From: an uncultured Pseudomonadota bacterium
GTDB lineage: Bacteria; Pseudomonadota; Gammaproteobacteria; Steroidobacterales; Steroidobacteraceae
Length of the DNA stretch: 64,000 nt
Direction of reading: 5' to 3'
Assembly: GCA_963726085.1 (NCBI GenBank)
Contig: CAVSAR010000011.1
Coordinates: 74,298 to 138,297, forward strand
The notes under the pieces are model-generated. The model did not search any database, was not told the DNA's origin, and saw only the letters and a list, made by a program, of their open reading frames with translations. Positions 1 through 30,162 of the stretch are shown in pieces (the first letter of the stretch is position 1; each line of letters opens with the position of its first letter). The position numbers and the translations under genes are program-made.

Positions 1-289
1 TCGGCCTCTCGCATACCTCGATCATCGCCGGCACTAGTGTGCGATTGCGATCAGCCAATGTGGCTTCGGCGCGTACCCAGCGTGAGACTACCGATTTCTT
101 CGACCACAATACGACCACCGCCTTTGCTTCGCGCAGCGCACCCTCTGTGACTTCATCATAGGCTTCACCCGATCGTAAAGCGGCATCCCACCAGACCGTA
201 AGGCCCTCCCGTTCAAAGGCCTCGGCAAACCGGCGCGCCACAGCTTGGTCTTCCCGGTTATAGGAAAGAAAGATTTCGGGCTGCGTCAT
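1..289 (-). CDS. TIR domain protein. Only the N-terminal ~96 codons are in the window; the gene continues beyond position 1.
   Basis: Reverse translation from the ATG at 289 gives MTQPEIFLSYNREDQAVARRFAEAFEREGLTVWWDAALRSGEAYDEVTEGALREAKAVVVLWSKKSVVSRWVRAEATLADRNRTLVPAMIE, a TIR_2-type domain with the same motifs as the three downstream paralogues. There is an ATGA start/stop overlap with the next gene (stop of 286..2076). Confidence 0.7.
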   Translation of the reverse strand, partial: MTQPEIFLSYNREDQAVARRFAEAFEREGLTVWWDAALRSGEAYDEVTEGALREAKAVVVLWSKKSVVSRWVRAEATLADRNRTLVPAMIEVCERP

Positions 290-2076
290 GTACCGCGACT
301 CTCGGCCGATTCAAGTTGGGTGCGCGCGGTCGTCAGCATGGTCACGAACCGCGGATAACTTCGCATGGAATCAAAGTCGTTGTCCTTGTCGACCCATGCC
401 AACCATCCCGAATTTACCTTGCTGAACACGCCTTCCAGCAGGTCGCAGGCGGCTTCGGCGTCGTTCATACGCGCCATACCACAGGAAAGATTATAGAGAA
501 GGCGAACATTGTCGGGATCAAAGAGTACAGCACGACGCGCCCACTCCCTCGCACGATCCACCTCGCCAAGTTGCGCCAAAGCAGGGACCATGAAGCCCAG
601 GGCTCCCCCGTGATCTGGCTCCACCTCTAGCAATTTCTCACAGTGAGACACAAGTATGCGCGCGGCGGCATCGGCTTTCTGTTTGTCCCCGAGCCCGGCA
701 TAAGCCTGGACAATCATCCCAGCGGGCCGATAGGCAACAGGATCCAGGGTCATTGCGATTTCAAAGTGGCGGATGGCGTCCGGGTATTTTTGTCCGGCGA
801 TATCCAGATATCCCGCACACAACTGCGCCTCAAAGGAATTTGGATTCATTCGCAGTGCCGTCTCTATATACGAATGGCCAGCCACCAGATCCATGCCGGC
901 GCCGCGGCCCCGTGCCTCCGCCAGTGCGGCATATCCCTCAGCCAGGTTGGGGTCGAGCGCAATCGCCTTTTCGGCCGCAAGGACCGCCCGATCCAGCGAG
1001 GAACCGCTCACACCCCGCTGGGCCATTTCGCTCTCCGCGAAAGACAGTTGCGCCCACGCCTGGGCGCAGCTGGCATCCAGCTCCACAATGCGATTGCAGA
1101 TTCTCGCGATCAATGGCTGCATGCGTTCGCTGCCGGTACGACTGAACTGCCGCGCCAGCAGGAACAGCTCGTAGGCCTCGGAACTGTTGGTGGTGCGTTG
1201 GGCGATAGCCTTCCGTTCGGCTGGCGCAAGCTTCACCTTCAGCGCGGCGACGATAGCCTGGGAAATCTCCTCCTGGATGGCAAAGATGTCGTCAAGCGTG
1301 CGATCGAACCGGTCGGCCCAGATCTGCGCGTCGGTGGTGACCTCCACCAGCTGCGCGGTAATGCGAACCCGCGACCCGCTCTTGCGAATGCTGCCTTCCA
1401 GGATGTGCGAGACGTGCTGTTCACGCCCGATCTGTGCCGCCGCGATTGTCCTGCCCTTTAACGAAAATGCTGCGTTTCGCGACACGACCGACAGCGCGGA
1501 CACACGCCCCAGGTCTGTAATGATGTCCTCCGTGACGCCGTCGCTGAAATACTCCTGCTCCGGGTCGCCACTCATGTTTACAAACGGCAACACCAATATC
1601 GCGGGACGCACTGATGCACCCTCGTACGGGGCCCTTGATGCCGGATGCGTAATGGCTGCCAGAGGCGACGGTGTAAGCACGGATCGCGCGGCAATGCGCC
1701 GCTTCACATCGGCAACCAGCCCCATCCAGACCCGGTCCTTAGGTGAACCATCCCAATGCATGAGTTCCGCGGATTGCGTCAGCTCGAACATGATGGGCCG
1801 GTCGCAGGTCTCGATCATCACCGGCACCAGTGTCTTGTTGCGATCCGCCAGCGTGGCTTCGGCCCGCACCCAGCGCGAGGCAACAGAGGTCTTTGACCAC
1901 AGCACCACTACGGCCTTGGCTTCACGCAGCGCCTTCTCGGTTACTTCGTCGTAGGCCTCGCCCGAGCGCAGGGTTTCGTCCCACCACACACCAACACCCT
2001 CGCGCTCGAAACCCTCGGCAAATCGTCGCGCGATGACCTGATCCTCACGGCTATATGAAAGAAAGACGTCCGTCAT
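286..2076 (-). CDS. TIR domain protein with a TolB-N/CadC-like sensor module and TPR-like repeats. No TM helix detected.
   Basis: I take the start as the internal Met of ORF 286..2226 (MTDVFLSYSREDQ..., cat at 2074-2076). TIR motifs are VWWDETL, VVVLWSKTSVASRWVRAEAT. They are followed by ILVLPFVNMSGDPEQEYFSDGVTEDII and a TPR-like Ala/Leu-rich C-terminal region. There is no hydrophobic segment between the TIR and sensor modules. Confidence 0.75.
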   Translation of the reverse strand: MTDVFLSYSREDQVIARRFAEGFEREGVGVWWDETLRSGEAYDEVTEKALREAKAVVVLWSKTSVASRWVRAEATLADRNKTLVPVMIETCDRPIMFELTQSAELMHWDGSPKDRVWMGLVADVKRRIAARSVLTPSPLAAITHPASRAPYEGASVRPAILVLPFVNMSGDPEQEYFSDGVTEDIITDLGRVSALSVVSRNAAFSLKGRTIAAAQIGREQHVSHILEGSIRKSGSRVRITAQLVEVTTDAQIWADRFDRTLDDIFAIQEEISQAIVAALKVKLAPAERKAIAQRTTNSSEAYELFLLARQFSRTGSERMQPLIARICNRIVELDASCAQAWAQLSFAESEMAQRGVSGSSLDRAVLAAEKAIALDPNLAEGYAALAEARGRGAGMDLVAGHSYIETALRMNPNSFEAQLCAGYLDIAGQKYPDAIRHFEIAMTLDPVAYRPAGMIVQAYAGLGDKQKADAAARILVSHCEKLLEVEPDHGGALGFMVPALAQLGEVDRAREWARRAVLFDPDNVRLLYNLSCGMARMNDAEAACDLLEGVFSKVNSGWLAWVDKDNDFDSMRSYPRFVTMLTTARTQLESAESRGT

Positions 2077-2095
2077 GACACTGCGCTTGCCCCGA

Positions 2096-4114
2096 TCATT
2101 TGCATTCGAAATCTTCCTTGCCAACTGGTCTGCAGAAGTCACCCCAGTTGCCGGCGGCGCGCCAGTAGGCGGCGACACCAATGTCTTGCAGTAGTTGCTT
2201 GAATCCAGGTTCACCACGTAAATCACGCATTACTGGCCGCCATAGTATGAAGCCCCAGATTTCGAAGCTGTAACCCTTGTGGCTCATGGCCTCGAACGTC
2301 TGCAAAGCAAGCTTGTGATCCCCAAGGTAGGTCGCCCACTGGGCAATACTGGACATGGTGTAGATATTGGCGGTATCCCGCGACTCATATTGCTGGTGCA
2401 GATTGCGCAGGGCCACAGCAGGCTCGTCCAGCAAGGGCTCGCCGGCGACGCTGGATACATCTGGCCCCGCTTCCCTAACTGCGACGAGCGCAGCCTTAAG
2501 CTTCGCTTCATTGCGGCTTGCCATGGCGCGCGTTACGGCAGTACCCAGCAGTGCGGGGGTGCGTCCACCGGGAAGCTGCAATAATTGGCGCATTTCTGCA
2601 TCGGCGCGCTCCACTTCCCCCGTGAGCTCGTATGCCATCAGCAAGTTGGTGCGCGCAAAGATGTCCAGCGGGTCATCCTTCTTCACTTTCTCAAGCACCG
2701 TGACGGCCTCTTTGGCCCGTCCCACGCCCTCCAGGAACTGGCCGTGGCGAAACCGTGCGCGCACCCCCAGCCCCCCGGTCAGTGCCAGGGCCTCATTCAG
2801 CAGCCGCTCCATGCCGATGAGATCGCCCTCGCGAGCCGCGCGATAGGACAAGGCGAAACTGGCCTCGGGGGATTTCGGCGACAGCGCCACAACCCGGTCG
2901 ATCGCCCCGTTGAGCTGGCGCTCGTATGGCGGGAGGGACTGCGGATCGTTGGGTGTAGCGCGGATGTACGCATCCACCAGCCACAGCCATGCCTGGACAT
3001 AGCCCGGATCGAGCGATACAGCGCGCTCCAGGTGCGGCGCCGCGGCGCGCATAGATGCCGTGTCGTTCGAATTGAGCAGCGCCCTGCCGGCAAGAAATTC
3101 GTCGTATGCCGCCACATTTTTCGTGCCGCCACCCCTGGGCGCGCCCATGCGCACCTGCAGTTCCTGGGCCACGGCTTTGGCGATCTCTTCCTGGATGGCA
3201 AAGATATCGTCAAGCGATCGCTCGTAGGTCTCGGACCAAACATGTGACCCGTCCGCAGTATTGATCAGCTGCGCCGTAATCTTGACCCGCTTGCCGGATT
3301 TGCGGACGCTTCCTTCCAGCAGGTGGTTGACGCCGAGCACTTCGCCGATATGCCGTAGGTCCTCGTTCTTTCCCTTGAACGCGAACGATGAAGTACGGCC
3401 AATCACGCGCAGGTCAGGTACCTGTGCCAGCTGGTTGAGCAGCTCCTCCGACAGGCCATCGGAAAAATACTCTTGTTCCGGGTCGGAGGACATGTTGACA
3501 AAGGGCAGGACGGCGATCGACGCCGGCACCGCGGCGGTCGAACTAGCGGGAGTGGACGACGCGACCAATGTACCTTTGGGCGCCAGATGCTGGCGCAGCA
3601 TCCATAGCCCGGCACCCGCAATCAGCAATACGCCGATGCCAATCGCCATCACCGCGCGATTGATCCGGCGCTTGCGATCCGCGGGGATTGCAGGCTGCGT
3701 CGAACGCCCCATTTCGGGATCGCCCTTTTGCACCAGTCGCCGTACGCTTGCCAGGTACGCCTGCCAGTCCTTGTCATTGGCGTCACCAGACCAGTTCGAA
3801 AGGTCCGCGGTCTGCTTTAGTTCGAACATGATCGGCCGTTTGCACGCCTCGATCATCGCTGGCACCAGCGTGCCGCTGCGATCTGCCTGGGTTGCCTCGG
3901 CCCGCACCCAACGCGACGCCACTGACTTCCTTGACCACAGGACGACCACAGCCCGGGCTTCTTCAAGGGCCTTTTCGGTTACTTCGTCATAGTCTTCGCC
4001 AGCATTGAGCGTCTGATCCCACCAGACCGTGAAACCCGCACGTTCAAAGCCCTCGGCAAAGCGTCGTGCAATCGCCTGATCGTCACGGCTATAGGAGAGA
4101 AAGATATCGGGCAT
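2096..4114 (-). CDS. TIR domain single-pass membrane protein: TIR, one TM helix, TolB-N/CadC-like module, TPR-like repeats.
   Basis: Start MPDIFLSYSRDDQ (cat 4112-4114; the annotated ORF begins 70 codons upstream without support). TIR motifs are present. The TM candidate is AVMAIGIGVLLIAGAGLWML. After it come IAVLPFVNMSSDPEQEYFSDGLSEELLNQL and TPR-like repeats. The C-terminus is NWGDFCRPVGKEDFECK. It lies 19 nt downstream of the stop of the previous paralogue. Confidence 0.75.
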   Translation of the reverse strand: MPDIFLSYSRDDQAIARRFAEGFERAGFTVWWDQTLNAGEDYDEVTEKALEEARAVVVLWSRKSVASRWVRAEATQADRSGTLVPAMIEACKRPIMFELKQTADLSNWSGDANDKDWQAYLASVRRLVQKGDPEMGRSTQPAIPADRKRRINRAVMAIGIGVLLIAGAGLWMLRQHLAPKGTLVASSTPASSTAAVPASIAVLPFVNMSSDPEQEYFSDGLSEELLNQLAQVPDLRVIGRTSSFAFKGKNEDLRHIGEVLGVNHLLEGSVRKSGKRVKITAQLINTADGSHVWSETYERSLDDIFAIQEEIAKAVAQELQVRMGAPRGGGTKNVAAYDEFLAGRALLNSNDTASMRAAAPHLERAVSLDPGYVQAWLWLVDAYIRATPNDPQSLPPYERQLNGAIDRVVALSPKSPEASFALSYRAAREGDLIGMERLLNEALALTGGLGVRARFRHGQFLEGVGRAKEAVTVLEKVKKDDPLDIFARTNLLMAYELTGEVERADAEMRQLLQLPGGRTPALLGTAVTRAMASRNEAKLKAALVAVREAGPDVSSVAGEPLLDEPAVALRNLHQQYESRDTANIYTMSSIAQWATYLGDHKLALQTFEAMSHKGYSFEIWGFILWRPVMRDLRGEPGFKQLLQDIGVAAYWRAAGNWGDFCRPVGKEDFECK

Positions 4115-4148
4115 TCTTGAGTCCCTGTTCGGCGGCCGCGCCGAGTGG

Positions 4149-5576
4149 CTAATCCTCGCCGTTTGCGTAGAGTTTGACCACTTCGTACAGGAACCTGCGA
4201 CCGTCCAGCAGCGATTTGACCCGGATGCGTTCATCCAGGCCATGGGCATGCGAACCTTCGGGGTCTGCAAACATGCCCGACAGTCCATAAGTCGGGATTC
4301 CGCCCGCGTCCAGGTACCTGCCATCGGTGGCGCCCACCGACATCGTGGGTATCAGGGGAACGCCTGGCCAGATCTTGGCAGCCACGGCCTGCGCCGGACC
4401 GAGGATGGCGCTTGTCATGCGGGGCGCCTGAGACTGCATGGCAGGTTCTCCGGTCGCGGCCACAGTAATCTTTTCATCGGCGAGCACGTCGCGGATTTCC
4501 CGCTGCACATCCGCGACCGAAACGCCTGGAAGGATGCGACAGTTGACGATAGCGCGTACATGCTGCGGCAGGGCATTGTCCGCATGGCCGCCTTCAATCT
4601 GGGTCACCACGCAGGTTGTGCGCAAGGCGGCGTTCCAGGCGGGGTTGACGGCCCAAAGCCTTTGCACGGCTGGCTCGTCCCGCGGATTGGCCAGCACGGC
4701 GCGCATGTCCTTGGCGATTTGCGGCGCGACCGACTTGCTCATCGCCTCGAAATAGGCGCGCGTGGTCGGATTGAAGGAGACAGTAAAGTCATGCGCGCCC
4801 ATGCGCACCAGCCCGGCACTGAGGCGCACGATCGGATTACTGTGCGTTGGCCGCGCGCTGTGCCCGCCGCCATCGGTTGCCTCCAATGCGAAATCCTGGA
4901 ATCCCTTCTCACCTGCCTGGATCTGCAAGGTAACTGGCCTCCCGTCCTTGTCGAGCTCGCCACCGGCGCCCTCATTGAGTGCGAAGGAGGCGCTGAGCAC
5001 CTGCGGCTGCGCCGCCACCAGCCATTTGACCGTATTGAAGATATCGGGCGTTTCTTCGCCGCAGGTCAGTGCCAACTTGATATCGCGTCGCGGCCTGAAT
5101 CCCTCCTTGCGATACCGAACCAGGTTATCCGTAAACACCGAGGCCATCGCCTTGTCGTCGGCTGCGCCGCGCGCATAGAAGTATCCGCCCTCCTCGACAA
5201 GCTTGAAGGGATCCCGTTGCCAGTCCTTGCGCTTTGCCTCAACCACATCAATATGCGCCAGCAGCAGGATCGGCTTGGCCTTCGGCTCGCGGCCACGCAG
5301 GACGGCAACCAGCGCGCCATCATTTGGGCGGTCTGGCGGTGCGAGGATCTGCATGTCGCCCGCGGGAATCCCCGCTGCCAGCAGGTGTGTGCGCATGGCT
5401 TCGGCCGCCTTCGTGCAGCTACCCACCGAACGCGTCGTGTTGAGTTCCACCAGCTCCTTGTAAAGCGCGCGAAATTCAACCTCCCCTGGGTCGGCCGCCT
5501 GTGACGTGGATGTGCCAGCCACGCTGGCTATCAGAATAGAGACTGCGCCGCGCGCTAGGGCCTTCTTCAGTGACAC
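4149..5576 (-). CDS. M20 family metallopeptidase (dipeptidase/carboxypeptidase-like), secreted.
   Basis: 475 aa with a signal peptide MSLKKALARGAVSILIASVAGTSTSQA and M20 hallmarks (LLLAHIDVV, GAADDK, CGEE). It is embedded between TIR paralogues. Its start overlaps the stop of 5567..7618 by 10 nt. Confidence 0.8.
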   Translation of the reverse strand: MSLKKALARGAVSILIASVAGTSTSQAADPGEVEFRALYKELVELNTTRSVGSCTKAAEAMRTHLLAAGIPAGDMQILAPPDRPNDGALVAVLRGREPKAKPILLLAHIDVVEAKRKDWQRDPFKLVEEGGYFYARGAADDKAMASVFTDNLVRYRKEGFRPRRDIKLALTCGEETPDIFNTVKWLVAAQPQVLSASFALNEGAGGELDKDGRPVTLQIQAGEKGFQDFALEATDGGGHSARPTHSNPIVRLSAGLVRMGAHDFTVSFNPTTRAYFEAMSKSVAPQIAKDMRAVLANPRDEPAVQRLWAVNPAWNAALRTTCVVTQIEGGHADNALPQHVRAIVNCRILPGVSVADVQREIRDVLADEKITVAATGEPAMQSQAPRMTSAILGPAQAVAAKIWPGVPLIPTMSVGATDGRYLDAGGIPTYGLSGMFADPEGSHAHGLDERIRVKSLLDGRRFLYEVVKLYANGED

Positions 5577-7618
5577 TCAAAGTCCTCCGCCCCAACGGGC
5601 TTGCAGTAGTCGCCCCAGTTCGAGGAAGCACGGAAATAGTCAGCCAGTCCGACATCCCGCACGAGATCCTTGAATCGCGCGTCGGAGCGAAGGTCGGACT
5701 TAAGCGGGAGCCAGAGCGCATTTGGCGAATGGAAATCGACCGACACGCGTCTCATGGCGATCAGTGCAAGGTCCTTGTCGTCGAACCTGTCGGCAAACAT
5801 CACGATGACGGACATGCGAACCCGATCCTGGTTCGCTGGATCATCAATGCCTTGCCTGATTGCAGCGCGGGCCTGCTCCCGATTTTCAAACTTCCCGGCC
5901 AGGTCGTGTGCAACCGGCATCGGTATCACCTCCTCGCTAAGCAATCTGTGGAACTGGGCCCTGATGGCCGCCGGCTCCGCATTCTTGCGCGCCAGGATTC
6001 GCATTAACGCGAAAATATTCGATTGCTGATGACTCCCGAGCAGCGTTTGGCTGCGCTCATACTCGGCTTGCGCCTCGCTGCTCCTGCCGACCATGTCCAG
6101 TTGCGCCTGCAGGGCACCGGATACATAGAGTGAGAGCGGATCCGCATCACGCGCCTGCTCCTCGAAGCGCACCAATTCCCTGTTCCTGCCCAGGGTCCCG
6201 AGAATGATGCCGTAGCTTTCACCCGCTTCGTTGCTACTGGATGGCAATGCACCGGCCTTCAAAGCACCGGCCATAGCCTCTTCGGCCTGCGCCCAGTTAT
6301 GCTGACCTACAAACTGGTTGACCCGCAAAATCTGTGCCCACCAGGCATTCGGAGCCAATGTCAAAACGCGCTCCGTCGCAGCGTTCGCCTCGCCGCGCAA
6401 AGCTGCGGACTCACTCTCCGGGACGCCGATCAGCGACTCGCGCAGTGCATAGCTTAGCAATAACCAGGCGCGCGAGAACTGCGGATCAAGCGCAACGCAT
6501 TCACGCAACTCCCGGACGGCATGCATGCCCGCCACCGGCCCGTTTTGGTGATAGATCTGGCGAGCGTGCAGATACTTATCATAGGCCTCCACATCCGTGG
6601 TTCCTCCCTGGACGCGAGGCAGATCCCCTACATCGAGCGTCACGCTCAATGCACGGGCTACATCCTTTGCGACTTCCTCCTGCACCGCGAAGACGCCGCT
6701 GAGTTCGCGATCGTAGGTTTGCGACCATAGGTGCCTGCCGTCCTTGGTACCGATCAGCTGCGTAGTAATTCGCAGATTCTTGCCGTCTTTGCGAACGCTA
6801 CCCTCGAGAATATTGTCCACATCCAGCGTCTTGCCGATCGCCCGAATGTCCTCGCCCTTTCCCTTGAACAGAAAGCTGGAGGTACGCGCGGTGACGCGTA
6901 GCGCCTTGATGTGCGCCAGCTGATTCAGGAGTTCCTCCGTCATACCATCCGAGAAGTAGTCCTGATCGTGCGCTGGTGACATATCGGCAAACGGGAGCAC
7001 CGCAAGCGTGATGTTGGTTTCCGGTTTTACCGCTGGGCTGCCTGCGAGTGCTTGCGTGGCGCCGGCAGCGGAAAATCCGGCAACCCCCTTGGGGCTGTAG
7101 TGGAACCAGATCAGGGCGGCGCCGGCAAGCACCAGCAGTGCCACGGGAATCGCGATCTTGAGCCCCATGCCCGCCCTAGGTCCCGCCATCGCCGTCCCCT
7201 TCGTCGGCGTGGTGGCAACCGGTTCACCTTTGTTCATGTGCCGGCGCAAATCGCCGACGAACGCGAGCCACGACCTGTCGTCCGGATCTCCTTTCCAGTG
7301 CGTCAGCTCCGCCGTGTGTTTGAGCTCGAACATGATCGGCCGGTCGCAGGATTCGATCATTGCCGGCACCAGCGTGCCGCTGCGATCCGCAGTGGTCGCT
7401 TCCGCCCGCACCCAGCGCGATTCAACGGACTTCTTTGACCAGAGCACGACCACTGCCTTGGCTTCGCGCAGGGCGCGCTCTGTCACCTGGTCGTAGTTCT
7501 CGCCCGAGCGCAGTGTTTGGTCCCACCAGACAGTGAATCCTTCGCGCTCGAATCCCTCGGCGAAGCGGCGCGCGGTCACCTGATCGTCCCGGCTATAAGA
7601 AAGGAAAATGTCGGTCAT
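5567..7618 (-). CDS. TIR domain single-pass membrane protein: TIR, one TM helix, TolB-N/CadC-like module, TPR-like repeats.
   Basis: 683 aa: MTDIFLSYSRDDQVTARRFAEGFEREGFTVWWDQTL...VVVLWSKKSVESRWVRAEAT. TM helix IAIPVALLVLAGAALIWF, then LAVLPFADMSPAHDQDYFSDGMTEELLNQL. The C-terminus NWGDYCKPVGAEDFECH parallels that of 2096..4114. Confidence 0.8.
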   Translation of the reverse strand: MTDIFLSYSRDDQVTARRFAEGFEREGFTVWWDQTLRSGENYDQVTERALREAKAVVVLWSKKSVESRWVRAEATTADRSGTLVPAMIESCDRPIMFELKHTAELTHWKGDPDDRSWLAFVGDLRRHMNKGEPVATTPTKGTAMAGPRAGMGLKIAIPVALLVLAGAALIWFHYSPKGVAGFSAAGATQALAGSPAVKPETNITLAVLPFADMSPAHDQDYFSDGMTEELLNQLAHIKALRVTARTSSFLFKGKGEDIRAIGKTLDVDNILEGSVRKDGKNLRITTQLIGTKDGRHLWSQTYDRELSGVFAVQEEVAKDVARALSVTLDVGDLPRVQGGTTDVEAYDKYLHARQIYHQNGPVAGMHAVRELRECVALDPQFSRAWLLLSYALRESLIGVPESESAALRGEANAATERVLTLAPNAWWAQILRVNQFVGQHNWAQAEEAMAGALKAGALPSSSNEAGESYGIILGTLGRNRELVRFEEQARDADPLSLYVSGALQAQLDMVGRSSEAQAEYERSQTLLGSHQQSNIFALMRILARKNAEPAAIRAQFHRLLSEEVIPMPVAHDLAGKFENREQARAAIRQGIDDPANQDRVRMSVIVMFADRFDDKDLALIAMRRVSVDFHSPNALWLPLKSDLRSDARFKDLVRDVGLADYFRASSNWGDYCKPVGAEDFECH

Positions 7619-7806
7619 TCACGGTTCCTGATGTGCTCGCCGGCAATTGGGTCAGGCCTCGCCAAGTGTAAGCGCTCCGCATCTGCACCGCCCGCCTCAA
7701 CTGGCGTATTGCCAAGAACACACGGGAGTTTGTCGGATCTCACCATGTGGGTGAGAAAACCAGGATGCGGAGCGGGTGGTAGCCGGGCTGACCCGACGCC
7801 CGCGGA

Positions 7807-8829
7807 CTAGGGCTTGCGCGCCATGACTAGCGAGTAATAGCCCCCGCCCGTACGCCAAGCCTCAATGTCGGCAAATCCGGCAGCCTCCAGAAACCCGCGC
7901 AGCTCTGGCAGGGTGTACTGCCTGCCCTTGGTACCCAGCAGCATCATCATCGAGAACGCGGCCGGCGCCAGTGGCCCACAGCCGTCATCGTCAATCAGCA
8001 TTTCGTGCAGCAGGATGCGCCCGCCGGCAGGCAGCGCCTCAAAGGACTTGCGCGCCAAAATGCGGCAGGTGGCGTCCGACCAGTCGTGAAAGATATTTGA
8101 GAAGAAGTGCGCGTCATGTCCGCGCGGCCAGTTCTCGGTGAACATGTTGACCGCTTGCGTTGATACCTGCGCCTGGACGCCAGCCGCCGCAATGTACTGG
8201 TCGGCTTCCACGCAGACCTGCGTGATCTCCATCACCGTGGCCCGCAGCTCGGGCCACGCTTTTGCCAGCCGGATCGGGAATATGCCCGATCCACCGCCCA
8301 CGTCCAGCAGCGACCGCACCTCGGAAAACAGCGGTTGCGCGGCAACACCCCGCGCAGCCGCCTGGCTGTGCGCATTCATGAAGGCCGTGATGAAATTGGC
8401 GAACTCCGGCGTCATCGCGCCACGTTCCCATTCATCCACGGAAGACAGTCCTCCCTGCGGGCGGCTGCCGGTGCGAAGTGTCGCAAGCATCTGCTTGTGC
8501 AGGAGCTCACGCTCGCGAAAGATGCCCAGCATGGGACCGTAATAGCCCTCTGCCTGCGGATGCATCCACATGCGGCTGGCGGCGGTCGCTCGCCAGCGGC
8601 CTTCGCGTCGCTCCACGAAACCCAGTGCCGCCAGAAGCCCCAGGTGAATCAGCAGCGCGCGCGCATCCACCTTGAGTTCGGTGGCCAATTCCGCGGTGGT
8701 CAGGGACCGCGATGAGATCGCCGTAAAAGTACCGACCTCATCAGCCACCGTGAGGACCGGCATCCGGTACTGCGACAGCCAGGTATCCCAGATGATCTTG
8801 TCGTCGCTGGTCGCGGGCAGTGCACTCAC
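7807..8829 (-). CDS. Class I SAM-dependent O-methyltransferase (family 2 OMT-like).
   Basis: 340 aa with an N-terminal dimerisation-like region and the SAM motif LLDVGGGSG. It lies 11 nt downstream of the MFS transporter gene. Confidence 0.75.
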   Translation of the reverse strand: MSALPATSDDKIIWDTWLSQYRMPVLTVADEVGTFTAISSRSLTTAELATELKVDARALLIHLGLLAALGFVERREGRWRATAASRMWMHPQAEGYYGPMLGIFRERELLHKQMLATLRTGSRPQGGLSSVDEWERGAMTPEFANFITAFMNAHSQAAARGVAAQPLFSEVRSLLDVGGGSGIFPIRLAKAWPELRATVMEITQVCVEADQYIAAAGVQAQVSTQAVNMFTENWPRGHDAHFFSNIFHDWSDATCRILARKSFEALPAGGRILLHEMLIDDDGCGPLAPAAFSMMMLLGTKGRQYTLPELRGFLEAAGFADIEAWRTGGGYYSLVMARKP

Positions 8830-8840
8830 TGTGATTTCCG

Positions 8841-10088
8841 TCAGGCCGTGCGCAGCTTGCGCGGTGCGGTTTCCTTGAGGAACAGCGCAACGATGAAGCC
8901 GAGCACCAGGCCACAGGCCGCGAAATACAGCGCGCCTTTCAGTCCATATTCGCCACCCGCGATCCTGCCAGCGATGATCGGGCTGATGCCGCCGCCGACG
9001 AATTCACCGGCGAAGATCACGAAGCCGGCCATGGAGGCCAGCATGCCGGGAGGCGCGGCTTCTGCGGCGACCGGACCTGCCAGGATCGCCAGTGCCGCAA
9101 AATTGAACATCGAGGCAAAGAACAGCAGGATCCACAGGACGGTCGTATCGTGTGGACCAGCCTGCGTAAAGAAGTACAGGAACGCCGCGGCCAGGATGTA
9201 GGAAGCCAGCGTGGACAGCTTGCGGCCGATGATGTCGGACAGCGCGGGCATCGCAAACTGGCCGATGCAGCCGCCAATACCCACCGCCGAGAACACGTTG
9301 CCGGCGGTCACCGGATCGAGCCCCAGGCCTGCACCAACTGGCGCGGTCAGGTAGGCCGTGAGCATCGCGGCGATCACGAAGATGCCACCCATGGCGCAGA
9401 TCAGCGTGAGCGGTGCGACCTTGGCGTTGCGATGCGCGAACATGCTGAGGAATGGCGCACCACCACTGCCGTGCCCCGTATCGGCACGCTTCAGCGGTTC
9501 CCGCACGACGAACCACATGATGATGGCCACGATCACGCCGGGCGCGCCGACGATCATGAACACGGAGTGCCAGCTGTGGCTGTTCAGCAGCCGCGTGGCA
9601 ATCAGTGGCGCCAGCGCCAGGCCGAACAGGGAAATCATGCACTGGAAGATGCCGTTGTTCATGCCGCGACGCGATGGCTTGGAGGCCTCCACCGCAACCG
9701 CGACCCCGGTCGAGGCCACCGGACCTTCGGCGACACCCATGATCACTCGGACCAGGACCAGGGCCGTGACGGAGCCGGCCAGGCCGCTGAATGCCGACAT
9801 CAGGGAGAACACCAGGATGGCAGGCACCAGCACCGCGCGGCGGCCGACTCTGTCCGCCAGATAACCCATTACGAACGCCGAGATTCCCCAGGCCATTCCC
9901 AGGTATCCCGCCAGTGTTCCTCCGTCCTGGGGAGTCAGGCCGAGATCCTTGCCCATCGTGGAGTTGGGCGACTGCAGGATGATCGGAAGCACGAACCTGT
10001 CGAGGCCCACCAGACCGAAGGTGATGCTCAGCAGCAGGATGATTTTCCACTCGTAACTGGTATCCCAGTTCTTTTCTTGTTGTGCCAC
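8841..10088 (-). CDS. MFS transporter.
   Basis: 415 aa, about 12 hydrophobic helices. Motifs GLDRFVLPIIL and ADRVGRRAVL are typical of MFS. Confidence 0.85.
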   Translation of the reverse strand: MAQQEKNWDTSYEWKIILLLSITFGLVGLDRFVLPIILQSPNSTMGKDLGLTPQDGGTLAGYLGMAWGISAFVMGYLADRVGRRAVLVPAILVFSLMSAFSGLAGSVTALVLVRVIMGVAEGPVASTGVAVAVEASKPSRRGMNNGIFQCMISLFGLALAPLIATRLLNSHSWHSVFMIVGAPGVIVAIIMWFVVREPLKRADTGHGSGGAPFLSMFAHRNAKVAPLTLICAMGGIFVIAAMLTAYLTAPVGAGLGLDPVTAGNVFSAVGIGGCIGQFAMPALSDIIGRKLSTLASYILAAAFLYFFTQAGPHDTTVLWILLFFASMFNFAALAILAGPVAAEAAPPGMLASMAGFVIFAGEFVGGGISPIIAGRIAGGEYGLKGALYFAACGLVLGFIVALFLKETAPRKLRTA

Positions 10089-10522
10089 GGCGCTCCCCCT
10101 TGATTGGATTTTATGGTGCGATTCGAGCCGGAACTATATCACTCCATTCAGCGCCAGACTTCGCCGGGGGTGTCTGTCATACCAGCCCGAAGTCTCGCGC
10201 AGCAGGTCCTAGCGCGACGCCCCCAGGTGCCCCGACTCGAAGACCACGTACCGCTAGCTATAGGGCGACCATCCAAGCAGTTCGCACAGGCGTTTGGAAC
10301 CTGAGTAGCGAATCGGCAGGTAAGAGCCGGAGCACGTCCCGCGCGCGCTAGCGCGCCCGGAAGATCGCCGGCATCGACAAGCGCAGCACGCTTCGTAACC
10401 TGCCGACGCGGCCCCTCTGCACATGGCCTGCGAATCCGCCCCGTTAGGCGGCGGTGCTCACTCTTCCCAGCCGGTGGGCGAGTTGTACGGTGTCGTGACG
10501 CCGATGCTTCGATCTCGTGGAT

Positions 10523-10882
10523 CTAGCCGCCCCATACCTTGAAGATGTGCTCTGCCGGCATGTCGAAGGCGCGCTGGTTGGTCATATCGGCCTCCTCGCG
10601 GTCAGGATTGCCAGTGATCTTGAACTTCTTCTGCGTCAGGTGCCGGAAATGCGAGAAGCCGATGGCCAGCCCGGTCACCGTGTCGGCAATCTCCACGCGG
10701 CGATCGTCGATGGTGGTGATGTACTGGAAGGCACCGGAGTCGATCTGCGAAGTGCAATCCTGCAATCCCTCCAGACCAGGCGGGCGCGGCGCGCCCCCCG
10801 GGATAGTGCCGCCCAGTGCGGTGGCGGTGGCCGCGGCCAGCAGGGCCGCGGCCATCCACACGCCTGATCTTCTTATTTTCAT
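10523..10882 (-). CDS. Hypothetical secreted protein.
   Basis: Start at the internal Met MKIRRSGVWMAAALLAAATATALG (cat 10880-10882), which gives a signal peptide. I recognise no family. Confidence 0.4.
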   Translation of the reverse strand: MKIRRSGVWMAAALLAAATATALGGTIPGGAPRPPGLEGLQDCTSQIDSGAFQYITTIDDRRVEIADTVTGLAIGFSHFRHLTQKKFKITGNPDREEADMTNQRAFDMPAEHIFKVWGG

Positions 10883-10904
10883 GCTTCCCCCCAAAAACTG
10901 ACTG

Positions 10905-11961
10905 TCAGAAGATCCCGGTCGGCGCTTCCATGGTGACGTCGCGCGCCTGGTCCGACATGCCCTGCTCCCAGGTGCTCCAGCCGGAGTTCATGCCGTAGGG
11001 GGCGCGCTGCAGGACTGCCTGGATCTTGCGGATCTTGCCCTTCTCGATCTTGAACAGCTCGGCGATCTGCCAGGTCCACGGCTGCACCGGGCCGGCAACG
11101 ACCTCGCGCCCATCGGGTGTCTTGAAGTGGCGGGTGTCGCCGCCGTAGTGATCAAAGAAGCCGAACGCGAACACGATGCCGCGCTCCTGGTCTATGGCCA
11201 CGAAGCGCCGGTCGCGGATGCGATTGACGAAGTGCAGCAGGCCGGACTTGAACTGCTCCATGCAACTCCACTGCGCGGAATAGTCGGTGGAAGTCAGCGG
11301 ATCGGGCTGCGTCTGCCCGGCGGGCGTCGGCACGTTGGTGGTCTGGTTGCCGTTCTCAAGGCGATTGCAGTCATCGCGCGAACGGATAATCGCCCTTGCC
11401 GTCGTTCTTCTGCATGCCGGTGAAATACTTGTTGCGCCGTGGCGATCAGCTCGGCGCGCGACATGCGCTCCGCCGGCGGCACCGCCTGCAGGTAGATCGG
11501 ATCGGTACCCAGTTCTTGGCCGTCCATAGGTCCAGCGCCGGCCGCTCGTCGCGCACCACCAGCTGCTCGATTTCGGTGATCTGGCCGTCCGGCACGCGCA
11601 GCCGCAGCGCGATCAGTGAGCCGTTGCCCTTGGCCGGATCACGGTTGTCCTCCTCGATGGTGCCGAAGAAGGCCACCTGGCCGGCCGGCACGTCAGTGAC
11701 GAACAGGCGGTACTTGCCCTTGCCCTGCATGGTGCTCCACAGGCCATCGCCGATGAGCAGGCGCTGACCGTCTTCGGTGAACCTCACGTTGGGCGACAGC
11801 GGCACCATGGACGGCTGGTTCGCAGCAACGGCGTCCAGGTAACGGTCGACGAAGCCTTCCAGGCACGCGCGGTCGCAGGCCGACTGGGCGGCGTGCACGG
11901 AAGACGTGCCCGCGATAGCAATAATTGCCGCGACAACCAAAGTAGTTGGTGCAAAGCGCAT
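10905..11961 (-). pseudogene. Hypothetical secreted protein interrupted by two frameshifts (possible sequencing errors).
   Basis: Three co-linear minus-strand ORFs in different frames (11446..11961 with signal peptide MRFAPTTLVVAAIIAIAGTSSVHA, 11294..11527, 10905..11333) tile one about 350 aa reading frame. Confidence 0.45.
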
Positions 11962-12021
11962 GAATCCCCCCGCTTGTTATGGTCGGGCATTCTGCACCAT
12001 CCCGGGCGACCTGGTCGACGG

Positions 12022-12996
12022 CTACTGCGGTTCTATGACCTGGTAGCCGCGCTGCCGAAGTTCGTAAAGTATGCCGTCCTTGGCCATCAGCTCGCGGATC
12101 CCCACCACGGCCAGCGTACCGCTGTTGCGCTGTAGTGCGCCCTCCATTGCCAGCAACAGCTCCAGGCGGAACTTGCGTCGTGCCTCTTCATACATCGTCG
12201 CCAGGCGCGGCGTGCCCAGGAGCAATTCCAGGCAGCGTTGCTCGGGAGAGTCCGCCGATATGTTGCGCAACGGCTCGAGGTCGCCAGTCGCCCAGGCATT
12301 GGCCTCGACCTGCAGCTGCGGCATGTCGTGCTCCATGCGTGCGACCAGTCCTTCGAAGCAGCCGATCTCGGCCTTGAAGTCCGACTTGGCATAATCATTG
12401 ATTAGGCCCTTTGGATCCTGCACCTGTAACGGGATCGAGGAGCGCCGGATCTCTACGCCATTGTGCTTGGCGGCCTTCTCCACCACCGGCCAGACCACGT
12501 TCTGCTCGCTGAGCTGCGCCGCATCCAGTGCCTGCGAATAGAGAATGAATGCGGCCAGCGCCGGTCGCCAGTGGTCTATCTTTCCCGGCGGCGAGTAGCG
12601 CGCCTTTAGCACCGACCAGCGCGCATAGAGGTCTTTGGGCAATATGTCCGCCAGGGTCTTGTCACCGGGAATCGAACGGGCCCGCAACATGGCCGGTAGC
12701 AGCCGCAGCCCAGTAAAGAAGCCGATTCCGGCACTGACTTCCGGCGGCGCGATCACGCTCTGCGAGCGTGCAATCACGGACTCGACCTGGCGCGCGCGCC
12801 ACTGCATCTTCTTTGGCAGGGGTGCGTGCGAACCCAATATCCACAACGTGTTGGCGCCGTTCTTGACCTGCCAGAGGCCCGGCCCCGGTTGCTCACCGGT
12901 TACGACGACCTCGTCGAGGACATCCTCGGCGTGCACGCCCTTCACCAGCAGCAGCAAGCCGAGCACGGCGCAGCGCAACGCGCGAGCGCGGGTCAT
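12022..12996 (-). CDS. TraB/GumN family protein.
   Basis: Start MTRARALRCAVLGLLLLVKGVHA (cat 12994-12996) gives a signal peptide. The rest resembles GumN/TraB-type proteins. This is a recognition call and was not computed. Confidence 0.6.
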   Translation of the reverse strand: MTRARALRCAVLGLLLLVKGVHAEDVLDEVVVTGEQPGPGLWQVKNGANTLWILGSHAPLPKKMQWRARQVESVIARSQSVIAPPEVSAGIGFFTGLRLLPAMLRARSIPGDKTLADILPKDLYARWSVLKARYSPPGKIDHWRPALAAFILYSQALDAAQLSEQNVVWPVVEKAAKHNGVEIRRSSIPLQVQDPKGLINDYAKSDFKAEIGCFEGLVARMEHDMPQLQVEANAWATGDLEPLRNISADSPEQRCLELLLGTPRLATMYEEARRKFRLELLLAMEGALQRNSGTLAVVGIRELMAKDGILYELRQRGYQVIEPQ

Positions 12997-13088
12997 GTGC
13001 CGCCGGCCAGGCGACCCTGATGCATGAGCGCGCGCAGCGGAACAAGCGGAGCCATGTGCTGCGCCAGAATGGTCCTGCGGCAAATGTT

Positions 13089-13403
13089 TCAGCTGCGTGT
13101 TGCCCATGCCGCCACGCCGATGCTCGCCAGCGCCATCAGCGCGGTGGCCAGCAACGGAAAATGCGAACTGCGCATTGCCACGCCCTGCAAGGCCGTAAAC
13201 GCCTGTGACATAGACGTAGCCACCAAGGGCGCTAGTGCCGCAGTTGCCAACAACACGCCCACGCCGATGGCGACCGAGGCCATGCGGGCATTTCGTCGCT
13301 GCCGCTCAACCCCCGCAATGACGGCCATGACCAGCGCGGGGTCCGCAGCGGGCGGCGCCTCCTGTGCGAACAATCGCTGCAACAGCTCGTTTGATTCGAT
13401 CAT
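13089..13403 (-). CDS. Anti-sigma factor (small membrane protein) paired with the ECF sigma factor.
   Basis: Start MIESNELLQRLFAQEAPP (cat 13401-13403) forms an ATGA overlap with the stop of the sigma factor gene. It has a C-terminal hydrophobic segment. Confidence 0.5.
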   Translation of the reverse strand: MIESNELLQRLFAQEAPPAADPALVMAVIAGVERQRRNARMASVAIGVGVLLATAALAPLVATSMSQAFTALQGVAMRSSHFPLLATALMALASIGVAAWATRS

Positions 13404-13957
13404 GGTGCCTCCAGCACGCCCGGATCCAGCCAAGCGCGCAGCCTGGCCGACCCCCTTGTCACGTGTGACTTTACAGTGCCCAGTGGCCAACCGGTATGCG
13501 TGGCGATCTCGCCATGACTCATTCCCTCAGCATGACAGAGCACCACGCAGATCCGCTCCTCGGCTCGCAGGCGCGCCAGGGCCCGCTCCAGGTCCAGCAC
13601 CAGGCCGGCATCCGGTGCACTGACAGGAACATCCATTCCCGCGTCCGGATCCAGCCACTCCGAGCGGCGTCGCATCTGCTGCAAGGCGCAGTTCAGGGCC
13701 AGCCGCCTCAACCAGGGCCCGAACGCCGCGAATTCGCGCAAGGTGCCCAACTGCATCCATGCCTGTAAGAAAGCCTGCTGCGACAGGTCATCCGCCAGTG
13801 CCGCATTGGCGCACACGCGGCGCAGAAACTGGCGCAGGCGCGGCTCGCGACGCCGCACCAGTTCCTCGAAGGCTTGCACTTCGCCGCCTGCCGCCAGTGC
13901 CACGAGCGTGGCCTCCGCCACGTTCGCAAGCGCCTTGCGGCGCGCCAGCAGATTCAC
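13400..13957 (-). CDS. RNA polymerase ECF-type sigma-70 family sigma factor.
   Basis: 185 aa with region 2 (DLSQQAFLQAW) and region 4 (MSHGEIATHTGWPLGTVKSHVTRG) motifs. Confidence 0.8.
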   Translation of the reverse strand: MNLLARRKALANVAEATLVALAAGGEVQAFEELVRRREPRLRQFLRRVCANAALADDLSQQAFLQAWMQLGTLREFAAFGPWLRRLALNCALQQMRRRSEWLDPDAGMDVPVSAPDAGLVLDLERALARLRAEERICVVLCHAEGMSHGEIATHTGWPLGTVKSHVTRGSARLRAWLDPGVLEAP

Positions 13958-14358
13958 ACGCCTGAGCCGTAGCTGCTACTGCCCATATGCCGCGGGCGCA
14001 GGTAAGCATTAAAGAACAAACCCAGACCTATGGTGGCCACCAGGCAGGCAGCACCCATGATCGGCCAGAAGGAATCTACCGCGATCTGGCGTATGAACAG
14101 GCTGAATACACCCAGACCGACACCCGTGGAGGTGATGCCAACCGGCCACGTAAAGGGATTGGCGGGGGCCCGGGGGCATGGCGGAGCAAGCAACTTTTCC
14201 ACCAGTGCGGCATCGAGGGTCTGGCCGCGTTCGATTGCCAGGCGAATGGTCTGCTGGCGTTCGCGCTCGACCATCAGGCGTCGCCACATGGTCACGGCGA
14301 CGATGCCAAACACTGCCAGGAAGAAGAACATCGGGCCCAAGACGTCTGCACCCATCAC
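13954..14358 (-). CDS. Small integral membrane protein (DUF), first gene of the ECF sigma operon.
   Basis: 134 aa with several hydrophobic helices. Its stop overlaps the sigma factor start (ATGA). Confidence 0.4.
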   Translation of the reverse strand: MMGADVLGPMFFFLAVFGIVAVTMWRRLMVERERQQTIRLAIERGQTLDAALVEKLLAPPCPRAPANPFTWPVGITSTGVGLGVFSLFIRQIAVDSFWPIMGAACLVATIGLGLFFNAYLRPRHMGSSSYGSGV

Positions 14359-14436
14359 ACACCTCCCGAATATATGTACGTTGCCGCAAGGGATGCGGCT
14401 GGCACGGCCACTGGATGCAGTGCCGACGGAAGAATC

Positions 14437-15945
14437 TCAGAAGGCCGGCAATGTCCGCACGGCCGGCGCCTTGAGTGCCGCCGCATCCTCCTTGACCAGC
14501 CTGCCGTCCGCGACCGCCTGGTCCACCGCGGCGTTGAAGCGCTTGATGTATTCGTTTCGGTCCTTGTAGAGCGCTTTGAGCCTGGGACCCTCGAAGCGCC
14601 GCATGGACCCGGTTATCTCGCACAGAGCACGGGAACCGGCATCGTTCTGCGCCGGCGTACTGCGACCTGAGTAAGTGGCCAGCGGCACGTCTATCTGCGG
14701 CAGCCGCCAGCCGCCCTGGACATTTCCCAGGCGGTCAAGCAATGGCTCGCCGCGCGAATCCGTCTCGATGCGCGGCACAGTGTCCATGGCCGCGCCAGTA
14801 ACCAGCAGGCGGTCGAATTGCTGCCAGATCGCGTTGAACGCCAGGCCGAGCGGAAAGTCGCTGCGCGGCTCCCGACAGGCGTCGTCAGCCGGAACCGCAA
14901 GGCCTGCGATCTGCAGGTCGACCGCGGCAGGTTGTCCGGCCGGATACGGGCCGGAGTACGCGGCGCCAGCGATTTCATACTGGTGGTACACGGCGCCGAG
15001 CTCGTCGCTGTCAGTGCGATGCTGTGCGGACGCACGGCGCAACTCCGTCTGCGTCAGCACCACCACCACCGGCGCGGTGCGTGGTGCCAGCGCACGTGGC
15101 TCCTCGGCTGCTGGCGCCGCAGTACAGGGGTTGAGGGGCATAAGCCCGGTTGCGGCGGCGCTGAGATAGCCGTCATAAATCGGCGCGCCATCGCCTAGCC
15201 GCAGGTTTGCGTGCAGTGCGTTGATGAAGGTGCCGATGTACGCACCGGCCTGGCCATATCCGGCCAGTATCACCCGGCGCGGGTTGTAATTGCGCAGTGG
15301 GTTCTCATGACTGGTACTGCGCAGCAGTGCACCGCTTTGCGCAATCAGGTCCCACACCAGGCCGCCATCACCCACGTCGGGGCCGGCCGCGGCCTTGCAA
15401 TCAGCAGGCGGATTGGCCATGTTCAATGGCTCATAGCGCAGCGAATCGAATTTTTCCAGCGTCGCGGCAGCGCGCGCGGATATCGTAATGCCCACCCAGG
15501 CGTCGCCACTGCGCAGGAACTGTTCGCTGGAAAGCCCCCACAGGGGAGCCGCGTCGTAGTTCTCCGGTGCGTCCAGAAGTTCCACGATCACGCGCCCACT
15601 GAAGCGCTTGGTGTCCAGCGGACGTCGCACCAGAAGGCGCGTGACGTAGGGCACTCGCGCCGCCCCTGCGGACGCTGCGGTGCGCACACCCGCGGGCGAC
15701 CACTCGTAGATACCGGCCAGGCCAGTGACCAGCAGCTCGTCCTCGGCATAGCCCTGGGCAGCCAAATCCACGGGCGCCAGGGCGCTGGCGGCAGCCAGGA
15801 ACGGACGGTTGGTTTCGCTGGCCGGGACCAGGGTGGCGCGCGGCGTCGACACCAGTTGCGCACCCATTACCCGCGCTGCCATTGCGGCCAGCAGCAGGCC
15901 GGTCGCAATCAATGGCAAACTCCGGTAATGCATGTGCGCCGTCAT
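14437..15945 (-). CDS. Hypothetical secreted protein, about 500 aa, possibly alpha/beta-hydrolase-like.
   Basis: Signal-like N-terminus LPLIATGLLLAAMAARVMGA. No catalytic motif is confidently recognised. Confidence 0.5.
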   Translation of the reverse strand: MTAHMHYRSLPLIATGLLLAAMAARVMGAQLVSTPRATLVPASETNRPFLAAASALAPVDLAAQGYAEDELLVTGLAGIYEWSPAGVRTAASAGAARVPYVTRLLVRRPLDTKRFSGRVIVELLDAPENYDAAPLWGLSSEQFLRSGDAWVGITISARAAATLEKFDSLRYEPLNMANPPADCKAAAGPDVGDGGLVWDLIAQSGALLRSTSHENPLRNYNPRRVILAGYGQAGAYIGTFINALHANLRLGDGAPIYDGYLSAAATGLMPLNPCTAAPAAEEPRALAPRTAPVVVVLTQTELRRASAQHRTDSDELGAVYHQYEIAGAAYSGPYPAGQPAAVDLQIAGLAVPADDACREPRSDFPLGLAFNAIWQQFDRLLVTGAAMDTVPRIETDSRGEPLLDRLGNVQGGWRLPQIDVPLATYSGRSTPAQNDAGSRALCEITGSMRRFEGPRLKALYKDRNEYIKRFNAAVDQAVADGRLVKEDAAALKAPAVRTLPAF

Positions 15946-15995
15946 TTAGAAACCACGGCGCCATGGCTGTCAACGAAGGATTGAAAAGAGGCCGC

Positions 15996-16886: not shown

Positions 16887-16939
16887 GCGGGAACGTGACG
16901 CTACCGGAGCGCGGCCCGGTTGGAGTAGGCTTTGCTGCA

Positions 16940-19204: not shown

Positions 19205-19229
19205 AACCGGCCTGGTCGATCGCCGACGA

Positions 19230-19751: not shown

Positions 19752-19755
19752 GTGG

Positions 19756-21050: not shown

Positions 21051-21086
21051 CAGCCGAAATTTTCAGACTTGCTTAATGTAAGGTCA

Positions 21087-21115
21087 CTGATAATATATCA
21101 GGGACCTGATATCAG
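21087..21115. promoter_or_regulatory. Candidate MarR operator: two adjacent palindromes in the AT-rich divergent promoter region.
   Basis: CTGATAataTATCAG (21087-21101) and CTGATATCAG (21106-21115) share CTGATA/TATCAG half-sites. They sit in a locally AT-rich island between the marR-like gene and the efflux adaptor gene. Confidence 0.35.
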
Positions 21116-21167
21116 ACAAGCCGAGTATTTCATGCGGACGGGAAGCGCTCCATCTTTGCGACAGCGG

Positions 21168-25312: not shown

Positions 25313-25400
25313 TTCCGGCGCCGGCGCCGCGCCTCGGGCCCGGGACTGCGCACCCCGACCGGCCTCGTCCAATGTCCGCCACGATGAATGAAGCGACCAG

Positions 25401-30130: not shown

Positions 30131-30162
30131 GGCGGCGCGCAAGCGCGAGGCATTCAATTGAG

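Follow-up and report, generated by a model that had tools for sequence, protein, structure and literature searches.

TIR-domain genes with CadC-like and TPR sensor modules in a Steroidobacteraceae contig, the candidate sensor half of a Thoeris-like signalling operon

Bacterial TIR signalling systems are described in the cited literature as responding to phage infection (bioRxiv 10.64898/2025.12.03.692087). What, then, would a TIR protein report on if it were built like a transmembrane receptor, and to which effector would it speak? The question is raised by the left end of a 64,000-nucleotide stretch of DNA from an uncultured Steroidobacteraceae bacterium (GenBank assembly GCA_963726085.1, contig CAVSAR010000011.1, positions 74,298 to 138,297; hereafter the window), in which four minus-strand genes, here called A to D, encode proteins that begin with a TIR domain and, in B, C and D, continue into a CadC-like module and TPR repeats. 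Our reading, to which we would give about an even chance, is that this array provides the sensors of a Thoeris-like operon for TIR-based nucleotide signalling, in which several of them may serve one effector. It draws on the domains and topology indicators of the four proteins, on the conservation pattern of their family, and on the linkage of related arrays to a protein that carries a SLOG-like domain and four transmembrane (TM) helices.

TIR domains and their sensors

The features of the array, all on the minus strand, are as follows (aa, amino acids).

2..289, minus strand: gene A, a TIR_2 protein truncated by the window edge after 96 codons; Glu codon 65..67; Pfam TIR_2 E 2.9e-21.
286..2076, minus strand: gene B, predicted soluble paralogue of 596 aa; TIR 1681..2076, Glu codon 1858..1860; short TM-less linker; CadC-like alpha/beta module 1186..1602; TPRs; TPR_END domain.
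2096..4114, minus strand: gene C, predicted membrane receptor form of 672 aa; TIR 3710..4114, Glu codon 3896..3898; TM helix 3596..3652; CadC-like alpha/beta module 3110..3529; variable TPR solenoid 2150..3109; Cys pair C661/C671 2102..2134.
4149..5576, minus strand: M20/M28-family metallopeptidase of 475 aa with a signal-peptide-like N-terminus, between D and C.
5567..7618, minus strand: gene D, second predicted membrane receptor form, 683 aa; TIR 7214..7618, Glu codon 7400..7402; TM helix 7109..7165; CadC-like module 6587..7015; TPRs; terminal Cys pair 5573..5605.

An earlier annotation made from the DNA letters alone (the original prediction) had seen four same-strand genes here, all starting with a TIR_2-type domain, and both statements hold: the open reading frames (ORFs) are present at these positions, and Pfam TIR_2 (PF13676) matches A, B, C and D at 76.4-81.3 bits, far over the gathering cutoff of 28 (E ~1e-21; for B, E 1.8e-21, together with several TPR families). 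The motifs VWWD, VVVLWS and SRWVRAEAT recur in all four TIR genes as had been noted, and FLSYSR[ED]DQ does so with the exception of A, which has FLSYNREDQ. The Glu of the WVRAE position, correctly said to be kept in all four, aligns in phmmer alignments with the Glu of the SRWCLDE/DWTNYE motif of RUN1 (6o0w) and AbTir (7uwg/8g83), which we take to be the catalytic Glu of those proteins. It is invariant in a 37-sequence family alignment (A1), and the 110 related TIR domains compared all keep it; by sequence the TIR domains of A to D are predicted to be of the enzymatic type. TIR domains with such a Glu cleave or cyclise NAD+ when brought together (bioRxiv 10.64898/2025.12.03.692087; PMC7159879; PMC9503650). 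PADLOC finds matches only at the domain level, among them ThsB models at E 2e-6 to 1e-2.

Behind the TIR domain, C and D each carry the single hydrophobic helix that had been predicted, strong in both when hydrophobicity is taken as the maximum 19-residue Kyte-Doolittle (KD) value (residues 155-173 of C, KD 2.31; residues 152-170 of D, KD 2.29). The module that follows, with its AVLPF...YFSDG...EGSVRK signature, and the terminal CxPVGxxDFEC pair are present in both proteins as first described and conserved in their relatives. That this module is CadC/TolB-N-like, likewise proposed from the letters, is borne out by two comparisons. The periplasmic part of the NCBIfam CadC model PRK10153 (CadC residues ~218-417) matches C at E 2.5e-8, with 33 bits against a 400-bit equivalog cutoff, and a Foldseek search with an AlphaFold2 model of C (mean pLDDT 84) returns CadC periplasmic-domain entries (3ly9/3ly7) as its top four PDB matches at E 9e-8 to 9e-7, followed by TPR proteins, the lipoprotein GNA1162, TolB N-terminal domains, FlgT and LpoB. 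SARM1 is also among the matches of this model, presumably through its TIR domain. Gene B is matched by the same CadC model (E 4.7e-6) and by NCBIfam TPR_END_plus (E 4.9e-13).

On which side of the membrane would these sensors lie? Lys and Arg residues number 5 versus 2 on the N- and C-terminal flanks of the TM helix in C and 2 versus 1 in D, so that the positive-inside rule is obeyed. TM forms end in NWGDFCKPVGxDDFEC with both Cys invariant, whereas soluble homologues with that tail end in ...FARPVGxDDFEII, with both Cys lost. Across related loci the sensor region holds 0.52 Cys per 100 aa in TM forms, as against 1.03 in soluble ones, and most TM forms have an even number of them (2 in 12 proteins, 4 in 6, 0 in 2 and 3 in 3; Mann-Whitney p 1.4e-5). 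Because of these flanks, the invariant terminal pair and the low, mostly even Cys counts, the sensors of C and D can be placed in the periplasm, which indicates type-II, N-in membrane proteins with a cytoplasmic TIR. Gene B reaches a maximum KD of only 0.95 and has no TM helix; it carries six Cys outside the TIR and lacks the terminal pair. The same sensor module thus appears to lie in the cytoplasm in B and in most relatives: among the 103 TIR+sensor proteins of related loci, a TM helix is present in 28 and absent from 68, with 7 ambiguous. The description of the array as four ToxR/CadC-type membrane receptors therefore goes too far, since only C and D show this form, B is without a TM helix and A is truncated after 96 codons; by the same token, the assignment of TIR to the cytoplasm and sensor to the periplasm stands for C and D and falls for B.

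Conservation is unevenly spread along these proteins. It amounts to 0.79 in the TIR, 0.75 in the alpha/beta module and 0.79 in the last 30 residues, and drops to 0.44 in the TPR solenoid, a pattern that fits a conserved output joined to a diversifying ligand-binding surface; the fast-diverging TPR solenoid is likely to be the ligand-binding part. Within the array the four TIR domains are 76-83% identical in amino acid sequence and the paralogues ~30-40% identical outside them. Recent duplication or gene conversion was considered as the cause of the near-identical TIR domains and rejected, given that third codon positions are only 38-60% identical and that about half of the identical TIR residues are encoded by different codons among the four genes. 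On the same two grounds the similarity is best attributed to purifying selection acting on what appear to be old paralogues. Diversification by tandem duplication, as suggested at the outset, is hence acceptable, with the qualification that third-position identity marks the duplication as ancient.

The original prediction spoke of a tandem array and left out the M20 gene at 4149..5576, which lies between D and C and whose start overlaps the end of D by 10 nt. Of the close spacing on which the genes had been called operonic, the ATGA overlap of A and B and the 19-nt gap between B and C are confirmed, whereas the 34-nt gap separates the M20 gene from C and not two TIR genes. A scan for promoters and terminators gave counts at chance level. 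The product of the M20 gene matches Pfam Peptidase_M20 (E 7.6e-26) and NCBIfam PRK09133 (E 5e-190). It was considered as a conserved functional partner and rejected, since none of the neighbour clusters that recur in 79 related loci contains it; for this reason the gene is probably an insertion into the operon, and the peptidase is probably no functional part of the TIR system.

A SLOG-4TM partner in related loci

Neighbouring ORFs of the 79 related loci were clustered, and adjacency was counted over the 59 loci whose downstream DNA extends for 1.5 kb or more. One recurrent neighbour stands out, a protein of ~675 aa whose gene comes immediately behind the last TIR gene. This adjacency holds in 12 of the 59 loci and in 7 of 15 arrays (8 of 15 if L071 is counted, where a stop-to-stop ORF runs from the TIR gene into the partner), and in the loci with genes called (L083, L086, L087 and L088) the TIR-partner junctions overlap by 1-4 nt. 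A minimal pair, consisting of a TIR-TPR gene of 556-559 aa and the partner, recurs in L087, L086 and L083.

The partner has four TM helices arranged in two hairpins, and its N-terminal ~250 residues contain a Rossmann-like domain with GVTGHR and GGTGHT motifs. NCBIfam SLATT_1 (28.3 bits, cutoff 41, E 1.4e-6) and SLATT_3 (21.6 bits, cutoff 45, E 1.8e-4) match separate hairpins, and Pfam DUF4231 matches 36 of 38 partner members, in every case under its gathering score. DUF4231 is, we assume, related to SLATT, and the SLATT and DUF4231 matches are mutually consistent. The protein is accordingly best described as a putative YpsA/DprA-like SLOG domain joined to a double SLATT-like 4TM domain. Its family is annotated as 'hypothetical' and has a mean column identity of 67%. 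It matches no type III Thoeris model at E<=0.1, and no SIR2 or Macro domain occurs in the scanned window genes or in the partner, so that ThsA, the canonical effector of type I/II Thoeris (SIR2-SLOG or TM-Macro), was not encountered. Usually the partner is followed by a ModE-N-like helix-turn-helix (HTH) protein of 128-135 aa. The corresponding positions in relatives are as follows.

L083 8143..8550: small ORF after the partner; ModE N-terminal domain TIGR00637, E 7e-22.
L082 2152..2550: small ORF after the partner, 71% identical to the L083 copy.
L003 14043..14441: small ORF after the partner, with a weak HTH_1 match.
L084 12082..12468: small ORF after the partner.
L088 3606..4001 (131 aa, 89% identical to gene A) and L017 11902..12249: TIR-only genes directly before the SLOG-SLATT gene and downstream of longer TIR-TPR genes.
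L084 10001..12013 and L085 4536..6548: partner without a TIR gene nearby (4.4-Mb genome).

Where would the partner of the present array be? The array runs off the left edge of the window. A SLOG-SLATT copy, P0125, shares 87% identity with the partner found in L003, a syntenic relative, and resides on a 302,158-bp NCBI/ENA contig whose size and source pair match the records of the window's C, B and D proteins, its M20 peptidase and its methyltransferase. In L083, a JGI contig, orthologues of D (T1, 74%), C (T2, 63%) and A (T3, 556 aa, 92% over 92 comparable residues) are followed in this order by the partner and a ModE-like gene. The next-best homologue of A, with 89% identity to its N-terminus, is P0391, a TIR-only protein of 131 aa, and the genes of both T3 and P0391 overlap the start of the partner gene. 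From these four observations we infer that the operon probably consists of D, the M20 gene, C, B, A, the SLOG-SLATT gene and the ModE-like gene, with the last two just left of nucleotide 1. In its full form gene A could be either a 131-aa TIR-only or a ~556-aa TIR-TPR gene; a search with the 96-residue fragment of A returned short proteins only, and the short type is possible. The claim that the context is unlike Thoeris, with no SLOG gene nearby, is accordingly true inside the window alone, as relatives of the array are directly followed by the gene for a SLOG and double-SLATT protein.

Proposed signalling and its rivals

How might such an operon work? Ligand binding to the TPR/CadC-like part would cluster the receptors, and the clustered TIR domains would form active sites that convert NAD+ into an ADP-ribose-derived messenger. 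This messenger would bind the YpsA/DprA-like SLOG domain of the ~675-aa protein with its two SLATT-like 2TM hairpins, which in turn would change membrane permeability and lead to growth arrest or death. The ligand would be periplasmic for C and D, whose sensor may be closed by the C-terminal disulfide, and cytoplasmic for B, such that sensors of differing specificity and compartment could feed one effector. Precedents exist for the separate steps. The SLOG domain of ThsA binds TIR-made 3'cADPR (bioRxiv 10.64898/2025.12.03.692087), and SLATT proteins, predicted to be membrane effectors that a messenger activates, have been shown to be so in type VII Thoeris (bioRxiv 10.64898/2025.12.03.692087; PMC7159879; PMC9503650). 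As biological trigger we favour a phage or an envelope insult.

By analogy, the closest logic seems to be that of type III Thoeris, type VII Thoeris and a configuration called 'SLOG and 4TM', and membership in any of the three is not established. In type III Thoeris several TIR genes stand beside a DprA/SMF-type SLOG effector (van den Berg et al. 2024, cited by bioRxiv 10.64898/2025.12.03.692087 and PMC13276650). The related arrays resemble it in having several TIR genes per operon together with a single SLOG protein of the DprA/YpsA branch and not the ThsA (STALD) branch, and ThcB4 is the best NCBIfam TIR match of B, C and D, although at ~30 bits against a cutoff of 220. They differ from what those sources describe in the large CadC-like/TPR sensors on their TIR domains, some of them predicted to be periplasmic, and in the four TM helices of the SLOG protein. 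In type VII Thoeris a ThsB TIR protein acts with the SLATT effector ThsH, which is gated by canonical cADPR (bioRxiv 10.64898/2025.12.03.692087). A TIR gene directly beside a SLATT-type membrane effector and a proposed messenger-gated membrane disruption are common to both; in contrast to ThsH, described as a SLATT protein with cADPR bound between its protomers, the partner carries a SLOG domain of its own at the N-terminus together with two SLATT-like hairpins, and the TIR proteins here are receptor fusions of 550-690 aa. Table S2 of the same study gives 'SLOG and 4TM', with entries from Streptomyces sp. GKU 895 and Ca. Nitrospira nitrosa, as a putative Thoeris configuration (bioRxiv 10.64898/2025.12.03.692087). 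It likewise sets SLOG and four TM helices beside a TIR gene, the effectors being comparable by their description; unlike here, the listed TIR proteins are unrelated in motif, SRWVRAE not being found in the accessible part of Table S2, which mentions no sensor fusion. What would be new in the present family, as a computational inference, is Thoeris-like TIR signalling that starts from receptor-type sensors, some of them periplasmic, and acts through a SLOG-4TM effector.

Several points weigh against an operon of this kind. The partner is not encoded in the window (tblastn), and in related loci the slot downstream of the TIR gene lacks it in 47 of 59, or about three quarters. PADLOC calls no system and has no match for the partner, and all SLATT and SLOG assignments of the partner are under the curated family cutoffs or structural only. 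With its mean column identity the partner is unusually conserved for a defence gene, and in L084 and L085 it follows cytochrome bd oxidase genes together with the small downstream gene, with no TIR gene nearby. Around the array the genes are of housekeeping type, and this neighbourhood, which is syntenic with a relative, holds neither mobile nor phage genes nor a defence island. The two 'SLOG and 4TM' operons that others put to the test in E. coli conferred no phage defence (bioRxiv 10.64898/2025.12.03.692087). Finally, the whole account is computational, each of its biochemical steps having been deduced.

A bolder form of the proposal, which we hold only tentatively and consider somewhat improbable, takes C and D as true transmembrane TIR receptors. 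A periplasmic ligand would cluster cytoplasmic TIR domains, whose NAD+-derived messenger would gate a SLOG-SLATT channel, while soluble paralogues would sense cytoplasmic cues and act on the same effector. If true, prokaryotic TIR proteins would carry out outside-in signalling, not previously described, and TIR second-messenger signalling would reach extracytoplasmic cues, convergent with Toll-like receptors. In the open-access literature we found no paper on a TIR fused to a CadC-like/TPR sensor, nor on a TIR receptor facing the periplasm. The comparison with animal Toll-like receptors is one of analogy only: here the TIR is N-terminal in a predicted type-II protein, the repeats are TPR and not leucine-rich, and the Glu is of the enzymatic type, and there is no evidence that the architectures share descent.

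Among the rival explanations, a physiological, non-immune role survives best, and we regard it as possible if on the unlikely side. The proteins would then pass environmental or envelope cues across the membrane, like their wHTH paralogues, with the TIR making a second messenger or modulating NAD+ and the SLOG-SLATT protein acting as a regulated channel and not as a suicide pore. The surroundings of the array speak for it. The right flank (7807..30286) encodes an O-methyltransferase, an MFS transporter, TraB/GumN, Abhydrolase_10, an OPT transporter, MOSC, an RND efflux pair, a TonB-dependent receptor and other housekeeping-type genes, and is partly syntenic with L003, MFS, TraB/GumN, Abhydrolase_10 and OPT being common to both; there are no tRNA genes in the window and no mobile-element or phage gene among the scanned flank genes. 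The sensor chassis is shared with winged helix-turn-helix (wHTH) proteins, and TIR-less sensor genes adjoin TIR genes in L005. Genomes can hold many copies, with at least 6 loci of the TIR family in the metagenome-assembled genome (MAG) JBDTPN; TIR and partner are very highly conserved across Alpha- and Gammaproteobacteria; and the ModE-like HTH gene after the partner, as well as the cytochrome bd genes beside it in L084, would suit regulated physiology. The characterised TIR+SLOG and TIR+SLATT operons of the cited literature are, on the other hand, anti-phage systems, variable multi-copy sensor arrays with fast-evolving repeats are typical of immune receptors, and between MFS and C the window (methyltransferase, D, M20) has other genes than its closest relative L003 (GGDEF, HTH, DUF2975), as expected of a variable locus.

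An unlikely reading, and less probable than a physiological role, is that each protein is a self-contained, ligand-gated NADase, sensor and effector in one, whose depletion of NAD+ would end in growth arrest or abortive infection, with the SLOG-SLATT gene as an occasional add-on; the logic would be that of TIR-STING, TIR-SAVED and SARM1. The many loci without an adjacent partner are what this predicts. Solitary genes are indeed common, including one beside AbiE and ResIII genes (L001), the Glu is invariant, and the best PADLOC TIR match is the SAVED-TIR effector model (E 1e-10 to 4e-9). It accounts less well for the overlaps that couple the partner tightly where it is present, for the recurrence of the minimal TIR-TPR and partner pair, and for the 131-aa TIR-only gene right before the partner, which resembles the signal-generating ThsB more than a fused sensor and effector; moreover, several diverged sensors per operon would better suit a shared downstream effector.

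That the TIR domains are non-enzymatic assembly modules, through which membrane forms (C, D) and soluble forms (A, B) would hetero-oligomerise, as receptor and adaptor TIRs do in animal TLR/MyD88 signalling, and recruit another protein, agrees with TIR domains far more alike than the rest of the proteins and with the co-occurrence of both forms in arrays, yet is very improbable, mainly because a pure scaffold would not need the catalysis-required Glu kept in every domain, and further in that no candidate recruit recurs except the SLOG-SLATT partner, whose SLOG domain belongs to a class of nucleotide-binding sensors and not of TIR-binding modules (established for ThsA).

Family, output domains and neighbours

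How widely is this architecture spread, and is the TIR domain its only output? Full-length homologues were searched with C, and the counts, taken from the matches listed, are lower bounds. Hundreds of the listed matches cover 100% of C and bear no annotation beyond 'TIR domain-containing protein' or 'TolB-like protein'; at least 556 matches lie in species-representative genomes, and the TIR domain alone forms at least 403 clusters (50% identity) at E<=1e-30. In every listed match the TIR lies at the N-terminus or close to it, and the full-length proteins are mostly ~545-565 aa or ~635-700 aa long. Hosts are Steroidobacteraceae, Sphingomonadales, Caulobacterales and Hyphomonadaceae, with a few Acidobacteria and Gemmatimonadaceae, and isolates with family members include Croceibacterium salegens and Qipengyuania zhejiangensis. 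In L007, L015, L016, L017, L025, L027, L053, L073, L074 and L083 the genes stand in tandem, 2-7 to an array, with TM and soluble forms side by side. The family sets a catalytic-type TIR behind a periplasmic CadC-like/TPR sensor, with the same sensor predicted to be cytoplasmic in paralogues, and joins such sensor arrays to a single conserved SLOG-4TM protein; if our reading is right, a widespread family of soil Proteobacteria known by these two annotations would gain a testable function.

Among the best 120 matches to C, 8 carry Trans_reg_C (PF00486) and are 51-62% identical to C over the TM helix, the sensor and the TPRs, whereas none of the four proteins of the array is matched by PF00486 in Pfam, TIR_2 occupying its place. 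This upholds the proposal that TIR stands where a wHTH output would be, and the two outputs can be read as a natural domain swap on one receptor chassis, of which the family, if true, would be a natural example.

P0040, P0085, P0091, P0093, P0098, P0100, P0109: wHTH-TM-CadC-like-TPR homologues of C.

P0040, P0085, P0091 and P0109, from the same bacteria, show the relation over the TM helix, the alpha/beta module and the TPRs, and differ in the N-terminal Trans_reg_C where C has TIR_2. Compared with E. coli CadC and with ToxR-like regulators, C and D share the predicted N-in orientation, the single TM helix, the cytoplasmic output and the periplasmic sensor, whose fold has its best structural match in 3ly9/3ly7. 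They depart from these regulators in a TIR output in place of the winged helix, in a helical part expanded to a long TPR solenoid and in a stabilising Cys pair that is C-terminal, and many members of the family are soluble.

TIR-less genes with the same sensor and TPR modules were observed in L005, at 5221..7350 and 7803..10043, where they adjoin a TIR gene.

Among the neighbours of the array, the methyltransferase, the MFS transporter and the other right-flank genes were considered as partners and rejected, being housekeeping genes and syntenic with L003. A different setting is seen in L001, where a solitary C-like membrane TIR gene (61% identity) lies at 5596..9602 beside AbiEi/AbiEii, AEP-TOTE and ResIII helicase genes, a context that is defence-island-like and in this unlike that of the window. 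In L086, a string of genes at 3956..10004 holds a 1077-aa TIR_2+AAA_16 protein and two beta-lactamase-family genes together with a 558-aa TIR-TPR gene and the partner.

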